From assembly GCF_036507355.1 (NCBI RefSeq), contig NZ_AP027877.1: a DNA stretch of 64,000 nt. One strand, written 5' to 3'. Under the pieces are notes generated by a model that worked only from the letters and a program-made list of their open reading frames with translations, had not been told where the DNA came from and made no database searches. Source of the DNA: Escherichia coli. GTDB taxonomy: Bacteria > Pseudomonadota > Gammaproteobacteria > Enterobacterales > Enterobacteriaceae. Positions 30,769 to 64,000 of the stretch are shown one piece after another. The translations under genes were made by a program, and so were the position numbers. Position 1 is the first letter of the stretch; the number at the start of each line of letters is the position of its first letter.

Positions 30769-32085
30769 TTACTGCAATTCTTTGGCCGGTTCTTTTACGT
30801 ACAACAACGCCAACATCGACAGCAACGTGCCTCCACCCAGATACCACGCCGGAGCCGTCAAACTATCCAGCAACACGATGGATTGCGTAGCGAAATATTG
30901 AGCAAAACCGCCAAAGATTGCCACACCAATGCTATAAACCAGCGCAAAACCCAATGCCCGAATCCGTTTCGGCAACAGTTCAGAGATCAACAACATCACT
31001 GGCACACCGCCAAGCGTGGTAAAGCTGACCATCACGAAAACCACCGTCAGCAACATGCCAGGGCTTGGGTAATTCACCAACAGCCAGAATGACGGCCAGC
31101 TACAGATCAGCACCATCACACGGGAGATTAAAATCAGCTTTTTACGCCCGACCGAATCGCACAACATCCCCACAAGCAGCGCACCCACAAACGTAATAAC
31201 GCCCGCCAGTAACATCGCTGCATGAGAATAATGTTGAGGCATCGCCAGATACTTCGCCGCCCAGGTGCCGTAATAAAAGAGGGAGATATAGGTTGCGACC
31301 GTGCTACCAATAGCGAGTAAAACGCCATTAACGATAGTCGCCTTATGTTGCAGGAGCAGAGAAAACGCGCTTTCGCTGGTAGCAGCTTTTTTATTGCGCA
31401 CAGGCTCAGGTACGTCATTTTCCAGACTCAAACGCAACCAACAGCCGACAGGCGCTAATAACACGCCAATAAAAAACGGCACACGCCAGCCCCATTCAGC
31501 CATGACGGTTTCTGAACCGGTCGCAAAGGGCAGCCATGCACTTAAACCTAAAGCGACAACACCTCCAAAAGTTGTTGCCAGGCCTTGAGTCGCCAGTGAC
31601 CAACTGCTGTAAAAACCGCGACGATTTGCCGGAGCTGATTCAACCAACAAAGACATTGAGGCACCGACTTCGCCTCCTGCCGCAACGCCCTGAATTAGAC
31701 GCGCTAGCACCAGCGTCGCGGTTCCCCAATAGCCCGCCGTCGCATACGTCGGCGCAATGCCAATCATCAACGTGCCGAGGCTCATCAGGGCAATAGTGAA
31801 CACCATCGCGGGTTTGCGTCCGAAACGATCGGCCCAGGCCCCGACGATAATTCCACCAAGCGGGCGCATAAAAAAACTCACGCCAAACGTTGCAAATGCC
31901 AGTAACAGCGCGACATTGTGATCAGCGCTGGGTGGGAAGAAAAGCGTACTGATATAGACCACAAAAAAGTTGTAAACGCCAAAATCAAAAAATTCGAGCG
32001 CATTGCCAAACGCCGAGGCAAAAATCACCCGCCTGCCACTAGGCTTTTTCTTCACACTCACGCTTTCATTTACGATCGCCGTCAT
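30769..32085 (-). CDS. MFS transporter, metabolite:H+ symporter (MHS) type (ProP/KgtP/ShiA-like)
   Basis: 438 aa, multi-span hydrophobic profile, with the MFS/MHS signature [13 protein letters not shown]; not expected between fabR and sthA in the K-12 order. Confidence 0.8.
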
Positions 32086-32128
32086 TCCATGTTCCTTGCC
32101 ATAAAGAGTTGTTGTGTTGTTTTTTTAT

Positions 32129-33295
32129 TTATTGCAGCCAGGCTTCTACCAGTGCGCCCCAGTAGCTGCTTGCCGGGATCAGACTTGCATCGTTGAAGTC
32201 GTAACCCGGGTTATGCACCATGCAGGAACCTTCCCCGACATCGCCATTACCGAATAACAGGAAACCGCCTTTGGGTTGGGCTTCCAGCATGAAAGAGAAA
32301 TCCTCACTGCCCATCAGGGGCTTGATGCCAAACTCGGCCCGATCTTCACCAAACGTTTTACACGCCACCTGCCAGGCGAAGCGCGCCATCTCCTCGTCAT
32401 TCACTAATACCGGTGTACCGTTAACATGCGTAACCTCAGCCGTAGCACCAAAGCTGGCAGCCTGGGCCTGTGCCAAAGCAGGAATACGGGTCAGAAGAAG
32501 TTGTCGGGTATCGCGGCTAAGAGAGCGGACGCTGATTTTCATCTCAGCACTGTCAGGAATGACGTTAGCCGCCTCCCCTGCAACAATGCTGCCAACGGTA
32601 ATTACCGCCGCTTCCAGCGGATCGACATTGCGTGACACAATGCTTTGTAATGCGGTGGTGATATGTGCGGCAACCAGCACCGGATCGATGGCTTTGTGCG
32701 GGATCGCACCGTGTCCGCCACAACCACGAACCGTAATATGGAACTGATCCATTGACGCCATCAGTGCCCCTGGCTGGAAATAAAACTTACCCACCGGCAG
32801 ACCGGGCATGTTATGCATGCCGAAAATGACATCGCAGGGGAAACGATCAAAAAGCCCCTCTTTAACCATGATCTCACCGCCGTTAATCATCTCTTCCGCA
32901 GGCTGGAAGATAAGACGTAACGTGCCGTTAAAACGGCGGGTTTCGGCAAAATAACGCGCGGCCCCCAGCAGTATGGTGGTATGCCCGTCATGCCCGCAGG
33001 CGTGCATTAAACCAGGATGTTTACTGGCCCAGGGCTTGCCACTATTTTCATAAATCGGCAACGCATCCATATCCGCCCGCAGGCCAATACTTTTCTCTCC
33101 GTCGCCCACTTTTAACGTGGCTACCACGCCGGTTGTCGCCAGCCCTTGCTCAACCTTATAGCCCCACTGGCGCAGCTTTTCCGCAACCAAAGCACTGGTT
33201 TTAAATTCTTGTAATCCCAGCTCCGGGTTTTCGTGGATCTGATGGCGGATCTCACGCAGTTCTTCCTCAAACCCTCGAATATAGTGTTCGATCAT
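32129..33295 (-). CDS. M20D-family amidohydrolase (hippurate hydrolase / N-acyl-amino-acid amidohydrolase-like)
   Basis: 388 aa with the metal-binding motif MHACGHDGHT typical of M20D amidohydrolases; 43 bp upstream of the MFS gene on the same strand, so likely one operon. Confidence 0.8.
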   Translation of the reverse strand: MIEHYIRGFEEELREIRHQIHENPELGLQEFKTSALVAEKLRQWGYKVEQGLATTGVVATLKVGDGEKSIGLRADMDALPIYENSGKPWASKHPGLMHACGHDGHTTILLGAARYFAETRRFNGTLRLIFQPAEEMINGGEIMVKEGLFDRFPCDVIFGMHNMPGLPVGKFYFQPGALMASMDQFHITVRGCGGHGAIPHKAIDPVLVAAHITTALQSIVSRNVDPLEAAVITVGSIVAGEAANVIPDSAEMKISVRSLSRDTRQLLLTRIPALAQAQAASFGATAEVTHVNGTPVLVNDEEMARFAWQVACKTFGEDRAEFGIKPLMGSEDFSFMLEAQPKGGFLLFGNGDVGEGSCMVHNPGYDFNDASLIPASSYWGALVEAWLQ

Positions 33296-33624
33296 CGGCT
33301 ATTCCTTTATTCACTTATAAACAGGCTAATTAACGGATTTTATTGATGGTATAAATACAAATAACCCATCAATATAAAATATTTATATGTTTGTTTTATA
33401 AGAAGATTTCATAAAGACAATAACAAAAAAGCACGCTTCGGCAAGATAAAACTATCAGCCATAATAAAAAGCGATTAATAGTGAATAAATGTGTTAAGAA
33501 GGAGGCAGACAAAGCAAAGGCCGCTCACGCTATAGCCAGATTAATGACGGGGATCAATTGGCTTACCCGCGATAAAATGTTACCATTCTGTTGCTTTTAT
33601 GTATAAGAACAGGTAAGCCCTACC

Positions 33625-35025
33625 ATGCCACATTCCTACGATTACGATGCCATAGTAATAGGTTCCGGCCCCGGCGGCGAAGGCGCTGCAATGGGCCTGG
33701 TTAAGCAAGGTGCGCGCGTCGCAGTTATCGAGCGTTATCAAAATGTTGGCGGCGGTTGCACCCACTGGGGCACCATCCCGTCGAAAGCTCTCCGTCACGC
33801 CGTCAGCCGCATTATAGAATTCAATCAAAACCCACTATACAGCGACCATTCCCGACTGCTCCGCTCTTCTTTTGCCGATATCCTTAACCATGCCGATAAC
33901 GTGATTAATCAACAAACGCGCATGCGTCAGGGATTTTACGAACGTAATCACTGTGAAATATTGCAGGGGAACGCTCGCTTTGTTGACGAGCATACGTTGG
34001 CGCTGGATTGCCCGGACGGCAGCGTTGAAACACTAACCGCTGAAAAATTTGTTATTGCCTGCGGCTCTCGTCCATATCATCCAACAGATGTTGATTTCAC
34101 CCATCCACGCATTTACGACAGCGACTCAATTCTCAGCATGCACCACGAACCGCGCCATGTACTTATCTATGGTGCTGGAGTGATCGGCTGTGAATATGCG
34201 TCGATCTTCCGCGGTATGGATGTAAAAGTGGATCTGATCAACACCCGCGATCGCCTGCTGGCATTTCTCGATCAAGAGATGTCAGATTCTCTCTCCTATC
34301 ACTTCTGGAACAGTGGCGTAGTGATTCGTCACAACGAAGAGTACGAGAAGATCGAAGGCTGTGACGACGGTGTAATCATGCATCTGAAGTCGGGTAAAAA
34401 ACTGAAAGCCGACTGTCTGCTCTATGCCAACGGCCGCACCGGTAATACCGATTCGCTGGCATTACAGAACATTGGGCTGGAAACTGACAGTCGCGGACAG
34501 CTGAAGGTCAACAGCATGTATCAGACCGCACAGCCGCACGTTTACGCGGTGGGCGACGTGATTGGTTATCCGAGCCTGGCATCAGCGGCCTATGACCAGG
34601 GGCGCATTGCCGCGCAGGCGCTGGTAAAAGGCGAAGCCACCGCACATCTGATTGAAGATATCCCTACCGGCATTTACACCATCCCGGAAATCAGCTCTGT
34701 GGGCAAAACCGAACAGCAGCTGACCGCGATGAAAGTGCCATATGAAGTGGGCCGCGCCCAGTTCAAACATCTGGCACGTGCACAAATCGTCGGCATGAAC
34801 GTGGGCACGCTGAAAATTTTGTTCCATCGGGAAACAAAAGAGATTCTGGGCATTCACTGCTTTGGCGAGCGCGCTGCCGAAATTATTCATATCGGTCAGG
34901 CGATTATGGAACAGAAAGGTGGCGGCAACACTATTGAGTACTTCGTCAACACCACCTTTAACTACCCGACGATGGCGGAAGCCTATCGGGTAGCTGCGTT
35001 AAACGGTTTAAACCGCCTGTTTTAA
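33625..35025 (+). CDS. sthA: soluble pyridine nucleotide transhydrogenase
   Basis: 466 aa [469 protein letters not shown]; FAD/NAD-binding flavoprotein disulfide reductase fold. Confidence 0.95.
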
Positions 35026-35925
35026 CACTTTATCGAAATGGCCATCCATTCTTGCGCGGATGGCCTCTGCCAGCTGCTCATAGCGGCTGCGCAGCGGTGA
35101 GCCAGGACGATAAACCAGGCCAATAGTGCGGCGTGGTTCCGGCTTAATGCACGGCAGATAAACAACCCCATCGCGTTTGCGCTCCGGCGGCACAGCCAGC
35201 GCAGGCAGTAAAGTGATCCCGCTACCTGCCGCCACCATGTTGCGCAGAGTTTCCAGGCTGGTCGCGCGGAAGTGTGTATCTTCATCCGCCCCGGCTTCAA
35301 AACAGAAACCCATTGCCTGATCGCGCAAACAGTGACCATCTTCCAGCATCAGCAGTTTTTCCCCAGCCAGATCGGCCATCGGTACGCATTCGCGGTTCGC
35401 CCACGGGTGGTCTTCATAGATAGCCAGCAACATTGGCTCATCAAACAACGGCACTTCAATGAATGCTTCGCTCTCTTTCACCAGCGCGAGGATCACGCAA
35501 TCGAGTTTGCCGCTGTCCAGTTGCGCCAGTAACTGGTGGGTCTGTGCTTCATGCAGATACATTTCCAGCTTTGGAAAGGTCTGGTGCAGCATCGGGATAA
35601 TATGCGGTAGCAGGTACGGTCCAACCGTGGGAATCAAACCAATATGCAGCGGTCCGGACATCGTCTCGCCCTGCTGGCTTGCCATCTCTTTAAGGACTTT
35701 CACCTCACGCAGCACGGTACGCGCCTGATCCACCAGCAGCATTCCCGCCTGGGTGAACAACACTTTACGGCTGGTCCGCTCCAGCAACATCACGCCCAGC
35801 TCATCTTCCAGCTTACGAATTTGCCCGCTAAGCGTCGGCTGGCTAACGTGGCAGGAATCTGCCGCACGCCGAAAATGGCGGTGTTCAGCCAATGCCACCA
35901 GGTACTCAAGATCACGAATATTCAT
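35008..35925 (-). CDS. oxyR: LysR-family oxidative stress regulator OxyR
   Basis: Start set at [55 protein letters not shown] (305 aa); its 3' end overlaps the sthA 3' end by 18 bp (convergent). Confidence 0.95.
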
Positions 35926-36020
35926 TATCCATCCTCCATCGCCACGATAGTTCATGGCGATAGGTAGAATAGCAATGAACGATTATCCCTATCAAGCATT
36001 CTGACTGATAATTGCTCACA

Positions 36021-36135
36021 GAAACGGAGCGGCACCTCTTTTAACCCTTGAAGTCACTGCCCGTTTCGAGAGTTTCTCAACTCGAATAACTAAAGCCAAC
36101 GTGAACTTTTGCGGATCTCCAGGATCCGCTTTTTT
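36021..36135 (+). ncRNA. oxyS: OxyS small regulatory RNA
   Basis: GAAACGGAGCGGCACCTCTTTTAACCCTTGAAGTCACTGCCCGTTTCGAGAGTTTCTCAACTCGAATAACTAAAGCCAACGTGAACTTTTGCGGATCTCCAGGATCCGCTTTTTTTT, divergent from oxyR and ending in a terminator hairpin plus U-run. Confidence 0.9.
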
Positions 36136-36191
36136 TTGCCATAAAAAAGCCCGGCGATAAGCCAGGCTCAAATTTGTACATATAAATGTTC

Positions 36192-37565
36192 TTACCCCAA
36201 CCGCGCCCTTGCAAAAGCAATCGCCTGCGCCACCTGCTGCGGTGAGACGCCGCCTTTTGCCGCACGCTTGTCGAGGCACGATTGCAGCGACAAAATCGGA
36301 TAGACATCTTCGCCAATCACCGGGCTGAATTTCTGCAACTCGTCGAGCGGCAGTTCTTCCAGCGGTTTGCCCTGACGAATGGCTTCCACCACCGCTTCAC
36401 CAACAATATGGTGCGCCTCGCGGAAAGGTACGCCTTTCGCCACCAGGTAATCCGCCAGTTCGGTGGCGTTGGCGTAACCCTGCTGAGCCGCTTCCTGGCA
36501 ACGTGGACGTTTCACCTGGATGCCGTCCAGCACCAGCGCCGCCATATGCAGGCAGTCCAGCCAGGTATCGAGCGCGTCGAACAGACCTTCTTTGTCTTCC
36601 TGCATATCTTTGTTGTAAGCCAGCGGCAAACCTTTCAGCGTCATCATCATGCCGGTTAACGCGCCCTGCACCCGACCGCATTTACCGCGAATCAGCTCCA
36701 GCGCATCCGGGTTTTTCTTCTGCGGCATTAATGATGAACCGGAAGTCACGCGGTCAGAAAGCTCCACAAACCCCGCTTCGCCGGTGTTAAAGAAAATCAG
36801 ATCTTCAGCAAAACGCGACAGATGCACCATGCCGATAGCGGCAGCCGACAGCAGTTCCAGCACGTGGTCACGGTCAGAAACGCTGTCGAGACTGTTACGG
36901 GTCGCTGAAGCAAAGCCCAGCCAGCCAGCTAACTGTTCACGGTCGATCTCATAAGCCGTTCCCGCCAGCGCGCCACAGCCTAACGGACTGACATCCAGAC
37001 GCTTAAGCGCATCCTGCAAACGGCTTTCATCACGCGCCAGCATCTCAACATAGGCCAGGCACCAGTGCGCGAACGTCACCGGCTGGGCGCGTTGCAGGTG
37101 AGTGTAACCTGGCATGACCGCGTCCTGATTGTTTTGTGCGGTTTCCACCAGCGCCGATTGCAGCTGTCGGTTAGCCGTCAGTAACTCGCTAACGGTATCT
37201 TTGCACCACAGTTTCAGGTCAGTCGCTACCTGATCATTACGACTACGCCCGGTATGCAGCTTTTTGCCTAACTGGCCCACTTTGTCGATCAGTTTCCCTT
37301 CCACCCAGCTATGGATATCTTCGGCGTCGCTTTCAAGGATTTGTTGTGGCCTGGCGCGAACATCTTCCAGCAGCACGTTCAGCGCCTCTTCCAGTTGCGC
37401 CTGCTCTTCTGCGGTTAACACGCCGACCGTTACCAGGGCTTTGGACCAGGCCACAGAGCCAACAATATCCTGCTCCGCCAGACGGTAATCAAAGCGCAGT
37501 GAGTCGTTGAATTGTTTGAACCGTTGATCTGCTGCCTGGGTAAAACGCCCGCCCCAAAGTGCCAT
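36192..37565 (-). CDS. argH: argininosuccinate lyase
   Basis: 457 aa [460 protein letters not shown]; fumarate-lyase signature [12 protein letters not shown]. Confidence 0.96.
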
Positions 37566-45908: not shown

Positions 45909-46760
45909 ATGTATCACGACGTCAGCTATCTGCTCTCCCGCCTGATCAACGGCCCGCTGTCCCTGCGCCAGATTTACTTTGCCAGCAGTAACGGCCCGGT
46001 GCCCGATCTTGCGTATCAGGTCGATTTTCCACGGCTGGAAATTGTGCTGGAAGGTGAGTTTGTTGATACCGGCGCTGGAGCAACGTTAATTCCCGGCGAT
46101 GTGCTGTACGTTCCTGCTGGTGGCTGGAATTTTCCACAATGGCAAGCCCCCGCCACTACCTTTAGCGTGCTGTTTGGCAAACAGCAACTCGGCTTCAGCG
46201 TCGTGCAATGGGATGGCAAACAATATCAAAATCTGGCGAAGCAACACGTCGCCCGGCGCGGCCCACGCATAGGTTCTTTTCTGCTACAAACGCTCAATGA
46301 AATGCAAATGCAGCCGCAGGAGCAGCAAACGGCAAGGCTTATCGTCGCCAGCCTGCTTAGCCACTGCCGCGATTTGCTCGGCAGCCAAATCCAGACCGCC
46401 TCACGCAGCCAGGCACTGTTCGAAGCTATTCGCGATTATATCGACGAACGCTATGCCTCCGCGCTTACCCGCGAATCTGTTGCACAGGCGTTTTATATTT
46501 CACCAAACTATCTCTCGCACCTGTTTCAAAAAACGGGGGCCATTGGTTTTAACGAATACCTGAATCACACGCGACTGGAGCACGCTAAGACGTTATTGAA
46601 AGGCTATGACCTGAAGGTAAAAGAAGTGGCGCACGCCTGCGGCTTTGTCGACAGCAACTACTTCTGCCGTCTGTTTCGTAAAAACACCGAACGCTCGCCG
46701 TCGGAATATCGTCGGCAGTACCACAGCCAACTGACAGAAAAACCGACTACTCCAGAATAA
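45909..46760 (+). CDS. yijO: AraC/XylS-family transcriptional regulator YijO
   Basis: 283 aa ORF with a C-terminal AraC-type HTH (...YLSHLFQKTGAIGFNEYLNHTRLEHAKTLL...); its 3' end overlaps frwD convergently. Confidence 0.9.
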   Translation: MYHDVSYLLSRLINGPLSLRQIYFASSNGPVPDLAYQVDFPRLEIVLEGEFVDTGAGATLIPGDVLYVPAGGWNFPQWQAPATTFSVLFGKQQLGFSVVQWDGKQYQNLAKQHVARRGPRIGSFLLQTLNEMQMQPQEQQTARLIVASLLSHCRDLLGSQIQTASRSQALFEAIRDYIDERYASALTRESVAQAFYISPNYLSHLFQKTGAIGFNEYLNHTRLEHAKTLLKGYDLKVKEVAHACGFVDSNYFCRLFRKNTERSPSEYRRQYHSQLTEKPTTPE

Positions 46761-47088
46761 GATGGGTTTGCTGCGGCGCAGAAAGCACTTTGCGCACCGC
46801 GCTCATTACCCGCTGCGGCTCACGCAGGAATGCGTAGATGCTGCATTGCACATAGCGGCAATGTTCAAATCGCTCGGCACCGGCAAGCTCGATATCCGTA
46901 ATCAACAGAGCAACATCCGCCCGACGGATATCCTCGTCCGCTAAACGATTCTCCGTTCCCAGCGCGCCCTGAGTTTCAATGCTGACTCCCCACTTCTCTA
47001 ACAGGCACAACTTTTCCAGCCGTTCCGCCGCCATATAAGTATGCGCCACGCCGCTTACGCAGGCGGTTACTGCCACCAGGTATGCCAT
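46747..47088 (-). CDS. frwD: fructose-like PTS EIIB component FrwD
   Basis: 113 aa ORF MAYLVAVTACVSGVAHTYMAAERLE... with an EIIB-Fru type active-site Cys region. Confidence 0.9.
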   Translation of the reverse strand: MAYLVAVTACVSGVAHTYMAAERLEKLCLLEKWGVSIETQGALGTENRLADEDIRRADVALLITDIELAGAERFEHCRYVQCSIYAFLREPQRVMSAVRKVLSAPQQTHLILE

Positions 47089-61654: not shown

Positions 61655-61700
61655 CATCTATCCGTTTAGACGTCCAGATGTAAAGATGAAGGAAAAGCCG
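61655..61700 (-). promoter_or_regulatory. metF promoter with MetJ boxes
   Basis: AGACGTCT-like met boxes (tttagacgtccagatgtaaagatg) lie 50-90 bp upstream of the metF start. Confidence 0.6.
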
Positions 61701-62108
61701 AAGGGCGTCAACCGAAAAATGACCAATGATGGTGAGGAAAAATCAGGGAAGATGAATTTTCTTCATCTGTATATGGGAGTAGATAGGTTCTCTCGCATTA
61801 TCGCGTCGTGAAGTAATGAATAAATGCTTAAGCCATCGGCTGGAAATTTATTTAAATAAGAGTTAATTAATATTCACGACGGTGTTAGCTGAACACTTAT
61901 TTAAATAAAACAAATAGATACCATAATTTGCATTCATTACTGCATGTTTATTATTTGAACTACTTCAAACTATTAATAATTTTTCAAAAATTATGTTGCA
62001 GAGCAATTATGTATCCCCCACGATAAGTAGAACGTTCTACTAGAACGTTCTACTTATACAAAAAAGACTAATTCGCGCAGCTTTATGCGCTATTCGGGGG
62101 AAATCAGC

Positions 62109-63434
62109 ATGAGTCTGATGTCGAGTTTCGTGAAGTCACTTTCTAAATTATCGATGATTGGTCGCGCCCTAATGCTACCAATTTCGCTTCTGCCTGCCGC
62201 GGGGTTGTTACTCGCGTTCGGCGATAAATTCCATTTGCCGTTGATGATGAATGCGGGCGGCATTATTTTTGATAACTTGCCGATGCTTTTTGCTATCGGT
62301 TCCGCCGTAGGGCTGGCTTCTGAATCGGGAATTGCGGCGTTATCCGCAGCCGTTTCCGTTTTTGTCACCAATATCACCATCAGCACCGTACTTAGCATTA
62401 CGCCAGAAATGGCCGGGCAAGGCGGCAAATACGCGATGGTGGTGGGGATCCCAACACTGCAAATGGGCGTTTTTGGCGGCCTGATATGCGGGATTCTGGC
62501 GGCGTGGTGTTACAACCGTTTTCATACAATGCAATTGCCAGAATTCCTTGGTTTTTTCTCCGGAAAACGCTTTGTGGCTATCGCGACGGCTTTTCTCTCC
62601 TTCATTCTTGGCTTGTCACTGCCTTATGTCTGGCAACACATTCAGTCAGGAATCGATGCGTTATCGGTTATCGTTAATGGTAACAACCAGGCAGCATCAA
62701 CCTTTATTTTTGGTGTAACTGAACGGGCGCTCATTCCGCTTGGCCTGCACCACATCTGGTATCCATCGTTTTGGTATTCTTTTGGGGATTACACTACCCA
62801 TGCCGGGCAAATGATTCACGGCGATCAGACGATTTGGTTCAAGATGTTGGAAGAAGGGGTGAAATCATTTAGCAGCGACAGTTATCATGACGCTGGTAAA
62901 TTTATGCAAGGTGAATTCCCACTGATGCTGTTTGCCCTGCCTGCGGCGTGCCTGGCGATGTATCTGCTGCATGCACATATTGCCAAATCCTTCTCTGCGG
63001 GGCTTATTGACTATATTTCGTTTGGTATCCTGCCATCCTTTAATGGCTACGAAACCAACTTCCTGAGCGCCATTATCGTCGGCGTGCCAATGGCGGTGAT
63101 CTACTACTTCACCTTCCGCTTTGTTATTCGTCGTTTTGATGTAAAAACGCCTGGTCGCACCGAAACTACGGTTAGCGCTAATGATAAATCCGATGACGAG
63201 CTGGCAACAGAAATCATCACGCTGCTTGGCGGTCAGCAAAACGTTAAATCGGTAGGTTCCTGCATCACGCGTTTACGTCTGGAAGTCTCTGATAAAGAAG
63301 CGGTGGATCAGGATGGTCTGAATAATATTGGCGCCCGTGGCGTGGTTTTTGTCGGCGATAACGGCATTCAGGTAATTTTTGGCGCGCGAGCGCAATTTAT
63401 CGCGCAAACCATGTCGACGATGATCGGTAAATAG
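62109..63434 (+). CDS. PTS glucose/glucoside-family EIICB component (substrate unknown; alpha-glucoside-type suspected)
   Basis: 441 aa from MSLMSSFVKSL (the in-frame ATG at 62085 is less likely; GGGGGA SD sits before 62109); polytopic EIIC domain plus C-terminal EIIB with active-site Cys in GSCITRLRLEVSD; not expected upstream of metF in K-12. Confidence 0.8.
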   Translation: MSLMSSFVKSLSKLSMIGRALMLPISLLPAAGLLLAFGDKFHLPLMMNAGGIIFDNLPMLFAIGSAVGLASESGIAALSAAVSVFVTNITISTVLSITPEMAGQGGKYAMVVGIPTLQMGVFGGLICGILAAWCYNRFHTMQLPEFLGFFSGKRFVAIATAFLSFILGLSLPYVWQHIQSGIDALSVIVNGNNQAASTFIFGVTERALIPLGLHHIWYPSFWYSFGDYTTHAGQMIHGDQTIWFKMLEEGVKSFSSDSYHDAGKFMQGEFPLMLFALPAACLAMYLLHAHIAKSFSAGLIDYISFGILPSFNGYETNFLSAIIVGVPMAVIYYFTFRFVIRRFDVKTPGRTETTVSANDKSDDELATEIITLLGGQQNVKSVGSCITRLRLEVSDKEAVDQDGLNNIGARGVVFVGDNGIQVIFGARAQFIAQTMSTMIGK

Positions 63435-63515
63435 CCTTAAGATTACTCGATGTCAGAGGTTCTGGTCCCTGACCAGAACCTTCTTGCTATTTAAAGAATC
63501 AACGTTGTTCAGGGA

Positions 63516-64000
63516 GTGAGTTTGAAGAAAGTCAGCATAATTGATGTTGCTAAAAGAGCCGGAGTTTCCGTCTCTACCGTGTCGCTAGTGCTGCGCCAGA
63601 AAGGGAAAATCTCAGAGGCGACCATCGGGAAAGTTCATGCTGCTATTGACGAACTGGGCTACGTGCATAATGTTGCCGCCGCCAATTTACGTTCCCACAC
63701 TTCAAATCTTATCGGACTGATTTTACGTGATTTTAGCGATAGCTTTTCCATCAAAGTGATGGCTAGCATTGTTCAGGAACTGGAAGCCAAGGGCTATATG
63801 GTATTCCTTGGGCAACCACAGAACGAACATGAACATCTTGAACGTTGTTTACTTTCCTTCAAGCAACAAGGTGTTGCCGGAGTGATTTATCTGGCTTCCG
63901 ATGCGCATCGTGAAACCCTACCCACACTAATCCGCCAGTGTTCGCTTCCCCTTGTCGTCGCGTCACAAACGCCCATCAAAGATGAGTGCAACCTGGTGTT
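63516..64000 (+). CDS. LacI/GalR-family transcriptional regulator, N-terminal part (3' end outside window)
   Basis: HTH IIDVAKRAGVSVSTVSLVLRQKGKISEATIGKVHAAIDELGYVHNVAAANL; start at GTG 63516 or TTG 63522, preceded by an AGGGAG SD. Confidence 0.75.
   Translation, partial: MSLKKVSIIDVAKRAGVSVSTVSLVLRQKGKISEATIGKVHAAIDELGYVHNVAAANLRSHTSNLIGLILRDFSDSFSIKVMASIVQELEAKGYMVFLGQPQNEHEHLERCLLSFKQQGVAGVIYLASDAHRETLPTLIRQCSLPLVVASQTPIKDECNLV

Follow-up and report, generated by a model that had tools for sequence, protein, structure and literature searches.

The convergent genes sthA and oxyR share the last 18 bp of their coding regions. With a probability that we put at roughly three in four, this arrangement is a true overlap of two gene tails, dating back at least to the order Enterobacterales, in which the signals that form each mRNA 3′ end are embedded in the coding sequence of the partner gene and duplex RNA arises as a by-product. 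The overlap is clearly a maintained rather than a chance feature, and comparison between species shows that the antisense stop codon and both embedded structures are under selection. The overlap itself, the transcript overlap and the duplexes are already known, since they appear in the K-12 annotation and in four published data sets of overlapping transcripts; likewise, it was others who mapped the 3′ ends discussed below and who showed the sensitivity to bicyclomycin and the presence of duplex RNA. What is modestly new is that the embedded hairpins and the antisense stop constrain the codons of the partner gene across Enterobacteriaceae. A literature search for a dedicated study of the sthA/oxyR junction found none.

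Anatomy of the coding overlap

The window analyzed here is a 64,000-nucleotide stretch of an Escherichia coli genome, and positions refer to it unless MG1655 coordinates are given. The gene sthA, whose product is annotated in E. coli as the soluble pyridine nucleotide transhydrogenase, occupies 33625–35025 on the + strand and encodes 466 amino acids, ending in a TAA stop at 35023–35025. On the opposite strand, oxyR spans 35008–35925 (918 bp, 305 amino acids), and its stop codon is read from the strand complementary to 35008–35010 (+ coordinates). The coordinates of both genes come from the list of open reading frames (ORFs) and the E. coli genome annotation; the raw oxyR ORF reaches 35955, and the annotated start (MNIRDLEYL) lies at 35925. 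The shared segment, TTAAACCGCCTGTTTTAA (35008–35025), is read in sthA as TTA AAC CGC CTG TTT TAA (Leu-Asn-Arg-Leu-Phe-stop) and in oxyR as TTA AAA CAG GCG GTT TAA (Leu-Lys-Gln-Ala-Val-stop). The two frames are in exact antiparallel register, with the TAA stop of each gene antisense to a TTA leucine codon of its partner. Throughout the overlap, the third codon position of one gene is the first codon position of the other, and the segment therefore contains no free silent site.

Lying on opposite strands with 3′ coding ends that share 18 bases, sthA and oxyR form a convergent overlapping gene pair. This overlap was the central claim of an earlier, sequence-only reading of the window, and it is borne out by the sequence, the ORF list and the annotation of K-12 strain MG1655, where the same overlap joins oxyR at 4158490–4159407 (+) to sthA at 4159390–4160790 (−). 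It is also annotated in a near-identical E. coli strain. The region 33500–36200 is matched in 5425 of 5426 complete E. coli genomes, mostly at 95–99% identity and at ≥99% in 467 of them. An annotation artefact can be ruled out as the source of the overlap because both of its ends are set by stop codons and are conserved.

Age of the overlap and the antisense stop codon

A conservation scan with one genome per species returned 80 loci, every one from Enterobacteriaceae. The convergent neighbor of sthA is oxyR in all 78 evaluable loci, and both proteins are conserved in at least 78 species. The overlap measures 18 bp in 76 of these 78 species, with its 18 columns almost invariant between species, and 27 bp in the remaining two, Enterobacter soli and Pluralibacter gergoviae. 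In these two species, sthA Leu462 is encoded by CTG, so the antisense stop is lost and oxyR extends by three codons to an antisense stop at sthA Leu459 (34999–35001). The Leu459 codon is TTA in the window and thus provides a back-up antisense stop for oxyR.

Codon usage at these two leucines stands out from the rest of the gene. Leu462 is encoded by TTA or CTA, whose antisense triplets are TAA and TAG, in 96% of species, compared to 9.2% across 31 conserved leucine positions of sthA. Leu459 uses the same codons in 51% of species and ranks second among the 31 positions. A look-up by protein took the comparison to five other Enterobacterales families beyond Enterobacteriaceae, revealing an overlap that is again 18 bp long in four genera (Erwinia, Hafnia, Serratia, Edwardsiella) and reaches 43 bp in Pectobacterium. 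Because the overlap is present in all these genera as well as in Enterobacteriaceae, it dates back at least to the order Enterobacterales, or earlier.

The sthA mRNA ends after a stem-loop encoded in oxyR

The transcript data used here were all obtained in K-12, and the sequence under study comes from another E. coli strain. We converted MG1655 positions as window = 35025 + (4159390 − x), a relation that we confirmed with the sequences given in the supplement of PMC7815308. The main 3′ end of the sthA mRNA maps to 35070 on the + strand, corresponding to the Term-seq end at MG1655 4159345 (−) reported by Adams et al. (PMC7815308, Supplementary file 1). This is the sole listed 3′ end classed as ‘primary sthA, antisense oxyR’, with average reads of ~78,000 and ~55,000 in two of the three condition sheets. 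The end lies within oxyR, 45 nt beyond the sthA stop codon and 5 nt beyond a stem.

The stem belongs to a hairpin at 35040–35065 (+), formed by GGCCATCC, a 10-nt loop and GGATGGCC, which begins 14 nt 3′ of the sthA stop and folds into an 8-bp GC-rich stem with a folding energy of −15.1 kcal/mol. Read in the opposite direction, the hairpin sits in the oxyR codons for E-A-I-R…M-D-G-H, with the arms specifying A-I-R and M-D-G-H; because it is encoded within the oxyR reading frame, it constrains OxyR codons. The stem is followed by UCUGCCAGCU (UCUGCC), and U accounts for only three of the eight bases that come after the stem. The hairpin thus has the stem of a canonical intrinsic terminator and lacks its U tract, which sets it outside that class.

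Several lines of evidence point to conservation of the structure itself. Across 80 sequences, 97.6% of the cells in the stem are paired, three pairs have changed on both sides (10 cells), and the observed covariation score was reached by none of 500 shuffles. The commonest switch, from A-U to G-C at pair 5, is found in eight species and combines an Ile-to-Val replacement in OxyR with a silent GAT-to-GAC change; in the other switches, Ala-to-Thr or Asp-to-Asn replacements in OxyR are paired with silent changes in the opposite arm. All one-sided changes produce G·U pairs on the + strand and would give C·A mismatches on the − strand, which indicates that selection acts on the sthA transcript. The synonymous sites of oxyR carry the same mark. 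Its 150 four-fold sites have a mean entropy of 1.05 bit, and only seven non-leucine sites have 0.25 bit or less. The final 18 codons hold four of the seven: two belong to the overlap and two to the stem arms, where the near-invariant four-fold sites are those of OxyR Gly and Ala codons. A sliding consensus fold over oxyR placed the + strand segment 35036–35095 at the top of 84 windows (−21.7, versus a mean of −3.1 with sd 3.5). The GGCCATCC hairpin is restricted to Enterobacteriaceae. Other Enterobacterales families have different hairpins 15–65 nt past the sthA stop, which could be due to chance in GC-rich sequence.

Transcription also proceeds beyond the mapped end. A read-through zone at 35277–35400 (+), antisense within oxyR, is delimited by a terminator and a Rho peak. 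The terminator, T 4157161 (v2 coordinates) of Conway et al., is tabulated in PMC7373196, a source in older coordinates for which window = 35025 + (4157413 − x), and falls at 35277. The Rho peak, at 4159015 (−) and antisense to oxyR, corresponds to ~35400 (Rho score 5.8, p 6e-31; PMC7815308); Rho regions in that study were computed in 800-nt windows, making all such positions coarse. A single experiment with bicyclomycin underlies the Rho dependence, and the drug also raises antisense transcription generally.

The sthA end thereby resembles a class described by Dar and Sorek in 2018 (PMC6061677). Rho-dependent transcripts in this class end precisely after stable stem-loops devoid of a U tract, which protect against 3′ exonucleases. 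The sthA mRNA has the precise end after a stable stem-loop that lacks a U tract and, judging from the published Rho score of 5.8 in coarse 800-nt windows, the bicyclomycin-sensitive read-through downstream. It differs from the class in that the stem-loop is encoded inside the frame of another gene, and exonucleolytic trimming would be the likely route to the sthA end.

The oxyR mRNA runs through two hairpins encoded in sthA

Published maps show that the oxyR mRNA extends ~100 nt past its stop codon into sthA. Past that stop, the − strand RNA forms a more stable fold than shuffled sequence does (−51.9 kcal/mol, z −3.2) and contains two hairpins. Hairpin A, with a core formed by CUACCCGA and UCGGGUAG, lies at 34960–34998 (−), 10–48 nt past the oxyR stop, within sthA codons 446–458 (folding energy −20.8 kcal/mol). 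It includes the rare arginine codon CGG at 34987–34989, which is kept in 78 of 79 species. Hairpin B (34911–34959, −) is embedded in sthA codons 427–445 and consists of 15 pairs with one mismatch and a long loop. Together with the U-rich tract that follows, it spans 34904–34959 and represents a candidate oxyR terminator. The tract is CUUUCUGUUCC in the window and CUUUUUGCUCC in many species, with five to six U among the eight bases 3′ of the CCACC arm.

Hairpin B folds with −18.0 kcal/mol on the − strand, compared to −11.8 kcal/mol on the + strand. In a sliding 60-nt consensus fold over sthA (79 species, 135 windows), the antisense strand averages −2.1 (sd 2.9); the segment 34905–34964 reaches −19.5 on the antisense strand, the most extreme of the 135 windows, versus −4.5 on the sense strand. 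Across 85 sequences, hairpin B is 98% paired, and nine of the 15 pairs of its main helix vary on one side, always in a manner compatible with wobble pairing on the − strand. Strict covariation was negative in the same 85 sequences, with no pair changed on both sides and a weak shuffle control (15/500). The 203 four-fold sites of sthA have a mean entropy of 1.22 bit, and only four have 0.1 bit or less. Three of these four lie in hairpins A and B, in the Thr ACC ACC codons (34951–34956), whose four-fold sites in hairpin B are invariant, and in the Arg CGG codon of hairpin A. Support for hairpin B therefore consists of its outlier status, its strand asymmetry and the constraint on its synonymous sites.

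The oxyR transcription unit ends at approximately 34898–34906 (−). A Rho peak at MG1655 4159509 (+), antisense to sthA, corresponds to ~34906 (Rho score 5.1, p 3e-16; PMC7815308, Supplementary file 2), and the other boundary, at 34898, derives from the 379-nt operon overlap of Conway et al., given in the table of PMC7373196 as 4157161–4157540 (34898–35277). Since the Term-seq data of PMC7815308 list no discrete oxyR 3′ end, its position rests on the coarse Rho data and the Conway boundary. Both coincide with the place where hairpin B and the U-rich tract behind it end, and hairpin B is probably a weak intrinsic terminator helped by Rho.

No call near the overlap came from a simple scan for terminators and promoters, whose rules exclude the sthA hairpin for want of a U tract and hairpin B for its long loop. 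Rfam covariance models gave no credible match at 34900–35100, their only hit being OxyS at 36021–36130. The C/G composition used as an indicator of rut sites is only mildly above 1 past either stop codon and hence uninformative. We also considered a 3′ fragment of sthA as an Hfq-bound small RNA and rejected it: a search of RIL-seq data gave sthA only as a target of Spot 42.

Complementary transcripts and duplex RNA

The sequence-only reading had proposed that convergent transcripts would be complementary over their ends. Published maps confirm the complementarity and correct its extent, as the mature sthA and oxyR RNAs overlap by at least ~165 nt (34906–35070) rather than 18, a roughly ninefold difference, and by ~380 nt when read-through is included. 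That reading had also named the observation that would speak against it, namely 3′ ends upstream of the overlap in both genes; the maps reveal the opposite, with the sthA end at 35070 and oxyR reaching ~34906.

Duplex RNA has been recovered from this junction. Huang et al. (PMC7373196, Table S1) captured RNase III-cut duplexes of the two transcripts with p19 across 34960–35304, in clusters E#268 and S#345, annotated as ‘oxyR sthA, 3′, Convergent’ at 4157134–4157478, with 189 RPM in exponential and 230 RPM in stationary phase. Single duplexes of 21–22 nt map to 34976–35000 (22 nt, in hairpin A) and to 35281–35304. ExcludonFinder (2025, PMC12288877) names oxyR-sthA, along with frwD-yijO, among 165 convergent excludons, a listing that requires overlapping transcripts in no fewer than 50% of 58 RNA-seq samples. 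The pair accordingly displays two features of convergent excludons in published data, overlapping transcripts and RNase III-processed duplexes. The consequences for protein levels appear small: the summary values of rnc-mutant proteomics are 1.37/1.17 for SthA and 1.26/0.67 for OxyR (PMC7373196). Antisense interference at sthA/oxyR is thus only a potential.

A model of the junction and competing explanations

There is no spacer between sthA and oxyR, and each 3′-end signal is consequently written into the coding sequence of the partner. In the explanation that we favor, RNA polymerase transcribing sthA would continue into sequence antisense to oxyR and Rho would halt it a few hundred nucleotides further on, after which 3′ exonucleases may trim the RNA back to the GC-rich stem-loop, leaving an end 45 nt past the stop codon. 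The oxyR mRNA extends ~100 nt into sequence antisense to sthA and includes two conserved hairpins there; the one further from the stop, with its U-rich tract, would probably act as a weak, Rho-assisted intrinsic terminator. A consequence of 3′ ends embedded in the partner is that the mature RNAs are always complementary over ~165 nt or more; they pair in vivo and RNase III cuts the duplex. For the most part, the overlap appears to be a layout that has become frozen and that has little regulatory output. Mutation cannot easily undo a dual-coding overlap whose frames are in register, its conservation thus requires no regulatory benefit, and for this reason we rank a frozen compact layout with embedded 3′ signals and a by-product duplex above a selected regulatory excludon.

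A rival reading is regulatory. The overlap would then be kept as a coupling in which transcribing either gene reduces the output of its partner, by way of polymerase collisions and of duplex cleavage by RNase III, linking the peroxide regulator OxyR to the NADPH-consuming SthA. The functions of the two proteins share a redox theme, and the layout is conserved across the order Enterobacterales. Moreover, the pair is listed as a convergent excludon (PMC12288877) and yields RNase III-cut duplexes (PMC7373196), sharing with the excludons of that listing the overlapping transcripts of convergent neighbors that serve as RNase III substrates. The outcome that defines an excludon, however, is mutually exclusive expression, which for oxyR-sthA is only potential given the small proteomic effects in the rnc mutant, and the difficulty of undoing an in-register overlap suffices to explain its conservation. 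We consider a regulatory role unlikely on these grounds. In addition, oxyR is autoregulated and not strongly induced, which limits switch-like behavior. A related idea is that the interlocked layout was itself selected since, with both 3′-end elements fixed in the partner gene, simultaneous expression of the two genes is certain to yield a duplex of set length. We regard this as a long shot. If true, sthA transcription, responding to carbon source and NADPH supply, would tune the oxyR mRNA via RNase III or polymerase collisions, or the reverse, so that throughout Enterobacterales redox metabolism would be connected directly, in cis, to the peroxide regulator.

Two further explanations concern the hairpins. 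Termination might be driven in both directions by the hairpins together with head-on collisions of RNA polymerase, a mechanism put forward for convergent pairs of E. coli genes, with Rho not the main factor. The sthA hairpin, without a U tract and located at a convergent junction, is reminiscent of the two-way terminators of Ju et al. 2019, which, as summarised in 10.1101/2022.10.23.513370, require a stem-loop, are unlike intrinsic terminators and are independent of Rho; the likeness lies in the convergent junction and a hairpin-dependent end without a canonical U tract. According to the same summary, that class relies on one shared Rho-independent element, whereas sthA and oxyR use two separate hairpins, ~80–160 nt apart and each in the coding sequence of the partner, and read-through is bicyclomycin-sensitive in both directions. 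Being located upstream of the oxyR stop, the sthA hairpin cannot end oxyR. A shared two-way terminator is thereby ruled out, and collisions as the main driver of termination are improbable.

The hairpins could instead lack any RNA function and simply follow from codon bias and protein sequence, as where Gly-Gly codons face Thr-Thr codons, and the overlap could be a neutral accident. The high conservation of both proteins, the preference for GGY and ACC codons and the absence of a doubly compensated pair in hairpin B all fit such an origin. It fits poorly with the rare CGG codon fixed in 78 of 79 species and with the OxyR changes from Ile to Val, Ala to Thr and Asp to Asn that are matched by synonymous changes in the other arm. 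Both structures are also strand-specific and are the top outliers among the windows of their genes, and a mapped 3′ end lies 5 nt past the sthA stem. We judge a by-product origin very unlikely, and the frozen overlap with embedded 3′ signals remains the explanation that we prefer.

Implications and other convergent junctions

As a discovery, the sthA/oxyR overlap is correct yet ordinary and carries little weight. Huvet and Stumpf counted 663 pairs of overlapping neighbor genes for E. coli, 75 of them convergent (PMC4161906). Like other convergent overlapping pairs in bacteria, sthA and oxyR lie on opposite strands with their last codons in common, and they do not differ from them in kind; they are notable only for the order-wide age of the overlap, the exact TAA/TTA register and the back-up antisense stop.

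The junction serves well to illustrate the cost of a convergent arrangement with zero spacer, as each gene carries the stop codon and the 3′-end hairpin of its partner. The price is a rare leucine and a rare arginine codon that are fixed, several four-fold sites that are frozen, and amino acid changes in OxyR that are coupled to silent changes elsewhere in oxyR. There is also a practical side for experiments in which either gene is recoded, deleted or codon-optimized: alterations in the last ~125 nt (~40 codons) of sthA can alter the end of the oxyR mRNA, and alterations in the last ~65 nt (~20 codons) of oxyR can alter the end of the sthA mRNA.

From our reading of the ORF list, the window contains six convergent junctions, two of which overlap; we take the gene names at these junctions to be those of the E. 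coli map. The second overlap had been described as similar to that of sthA/oxyR, and this holds in both the ORF list and the K-12 annotation: yijO (45909–46760, +) and frwD (46747–47088, −) meet tail to tail and share 14 bp at 46747–46760.

An altered sthA–oxyR overlap in Pectobacterium

The overlap between the convergent sthA and oxyR genes takes a different form in the Pectobacterium locus L084 (3865-3907), used here as a comparison outside Enterobacteriaceae, where it is enlarged to 43 bp. The sthA tail at this locus reads CTT AAC CGC TTA TTT TGA, with silent choices that differ from the usual ones, and because of these codon choices the usual antisense stop, which the Leu462 codon of sthA (TTA/CTA) supplies to oxyR when read in reverse, is absent. 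Loss of this stop results in a longer and different OxyR C-terminus (…NKRLSPFNAATR).

Antisense RNA and structured elements flanking the overlap

A second cluster of duplex RNA captured by p19 lies at the sthA 5' end, at v2 coordinates 4158623-4158826, equivalent to 33612-33815 in the window, with an antisense start site at 4158793 (+), corresponding to ~33645 on the - strand of the window (Huang et al., PMC7373196). In K-12, the beginning of sthA is thus overlain by antisense RNA as well.

Within oxyR, the sense strand at 35696-35785 (-) forms a second structured spot, with a conserved, strand-specific consensus fold scoring -15.3 versus -2.2 for the opposite strand. OxyS, a small RNA divergent from oxyR, occupies 36021-36130 (+) (Rfam RF00035, 139.5 bits), and positions 36111-36129 form a canonical terminator. 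Immediately downstream of argH, another site resembling a terminator is located at 36169-36147 (-).

Strain lineage and accessory segments

The core region 33500-36200 is 95-99% identical in most E. coli genomes and at least 99% identical in 467, which places the window strain in a minority lineage. Among the closest matches is the locus of 'Escherichia sp. MOD1-EC7003', whose SthA is 99% identical.

In the K-12 annotation, fabR sits directly next to sthA on that flank, so the window strain, where a two-gene segment (30769-33295, -) separates them, carries an insertion. One gene is of the MFS/sugar transporter type (438 aa), and the other encodes an M20 peptidase/aminoacylase (388 aa). As a result, the DNA that lies upstream of the sthA promoter region differs as well.

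A rare accessory segment adjoins metF at 61700-64000; among 5426 complete E. coli genomes, just 8 cover at least 80% of it, at ~87% identity. In those eight genomes, the annotation of its counterpart lists a PTS EIIC transporter and a MalI-like regulator, and the 449-aa ORF that the segment contains at 62085-63434 (+) is probably its EIIC gene.
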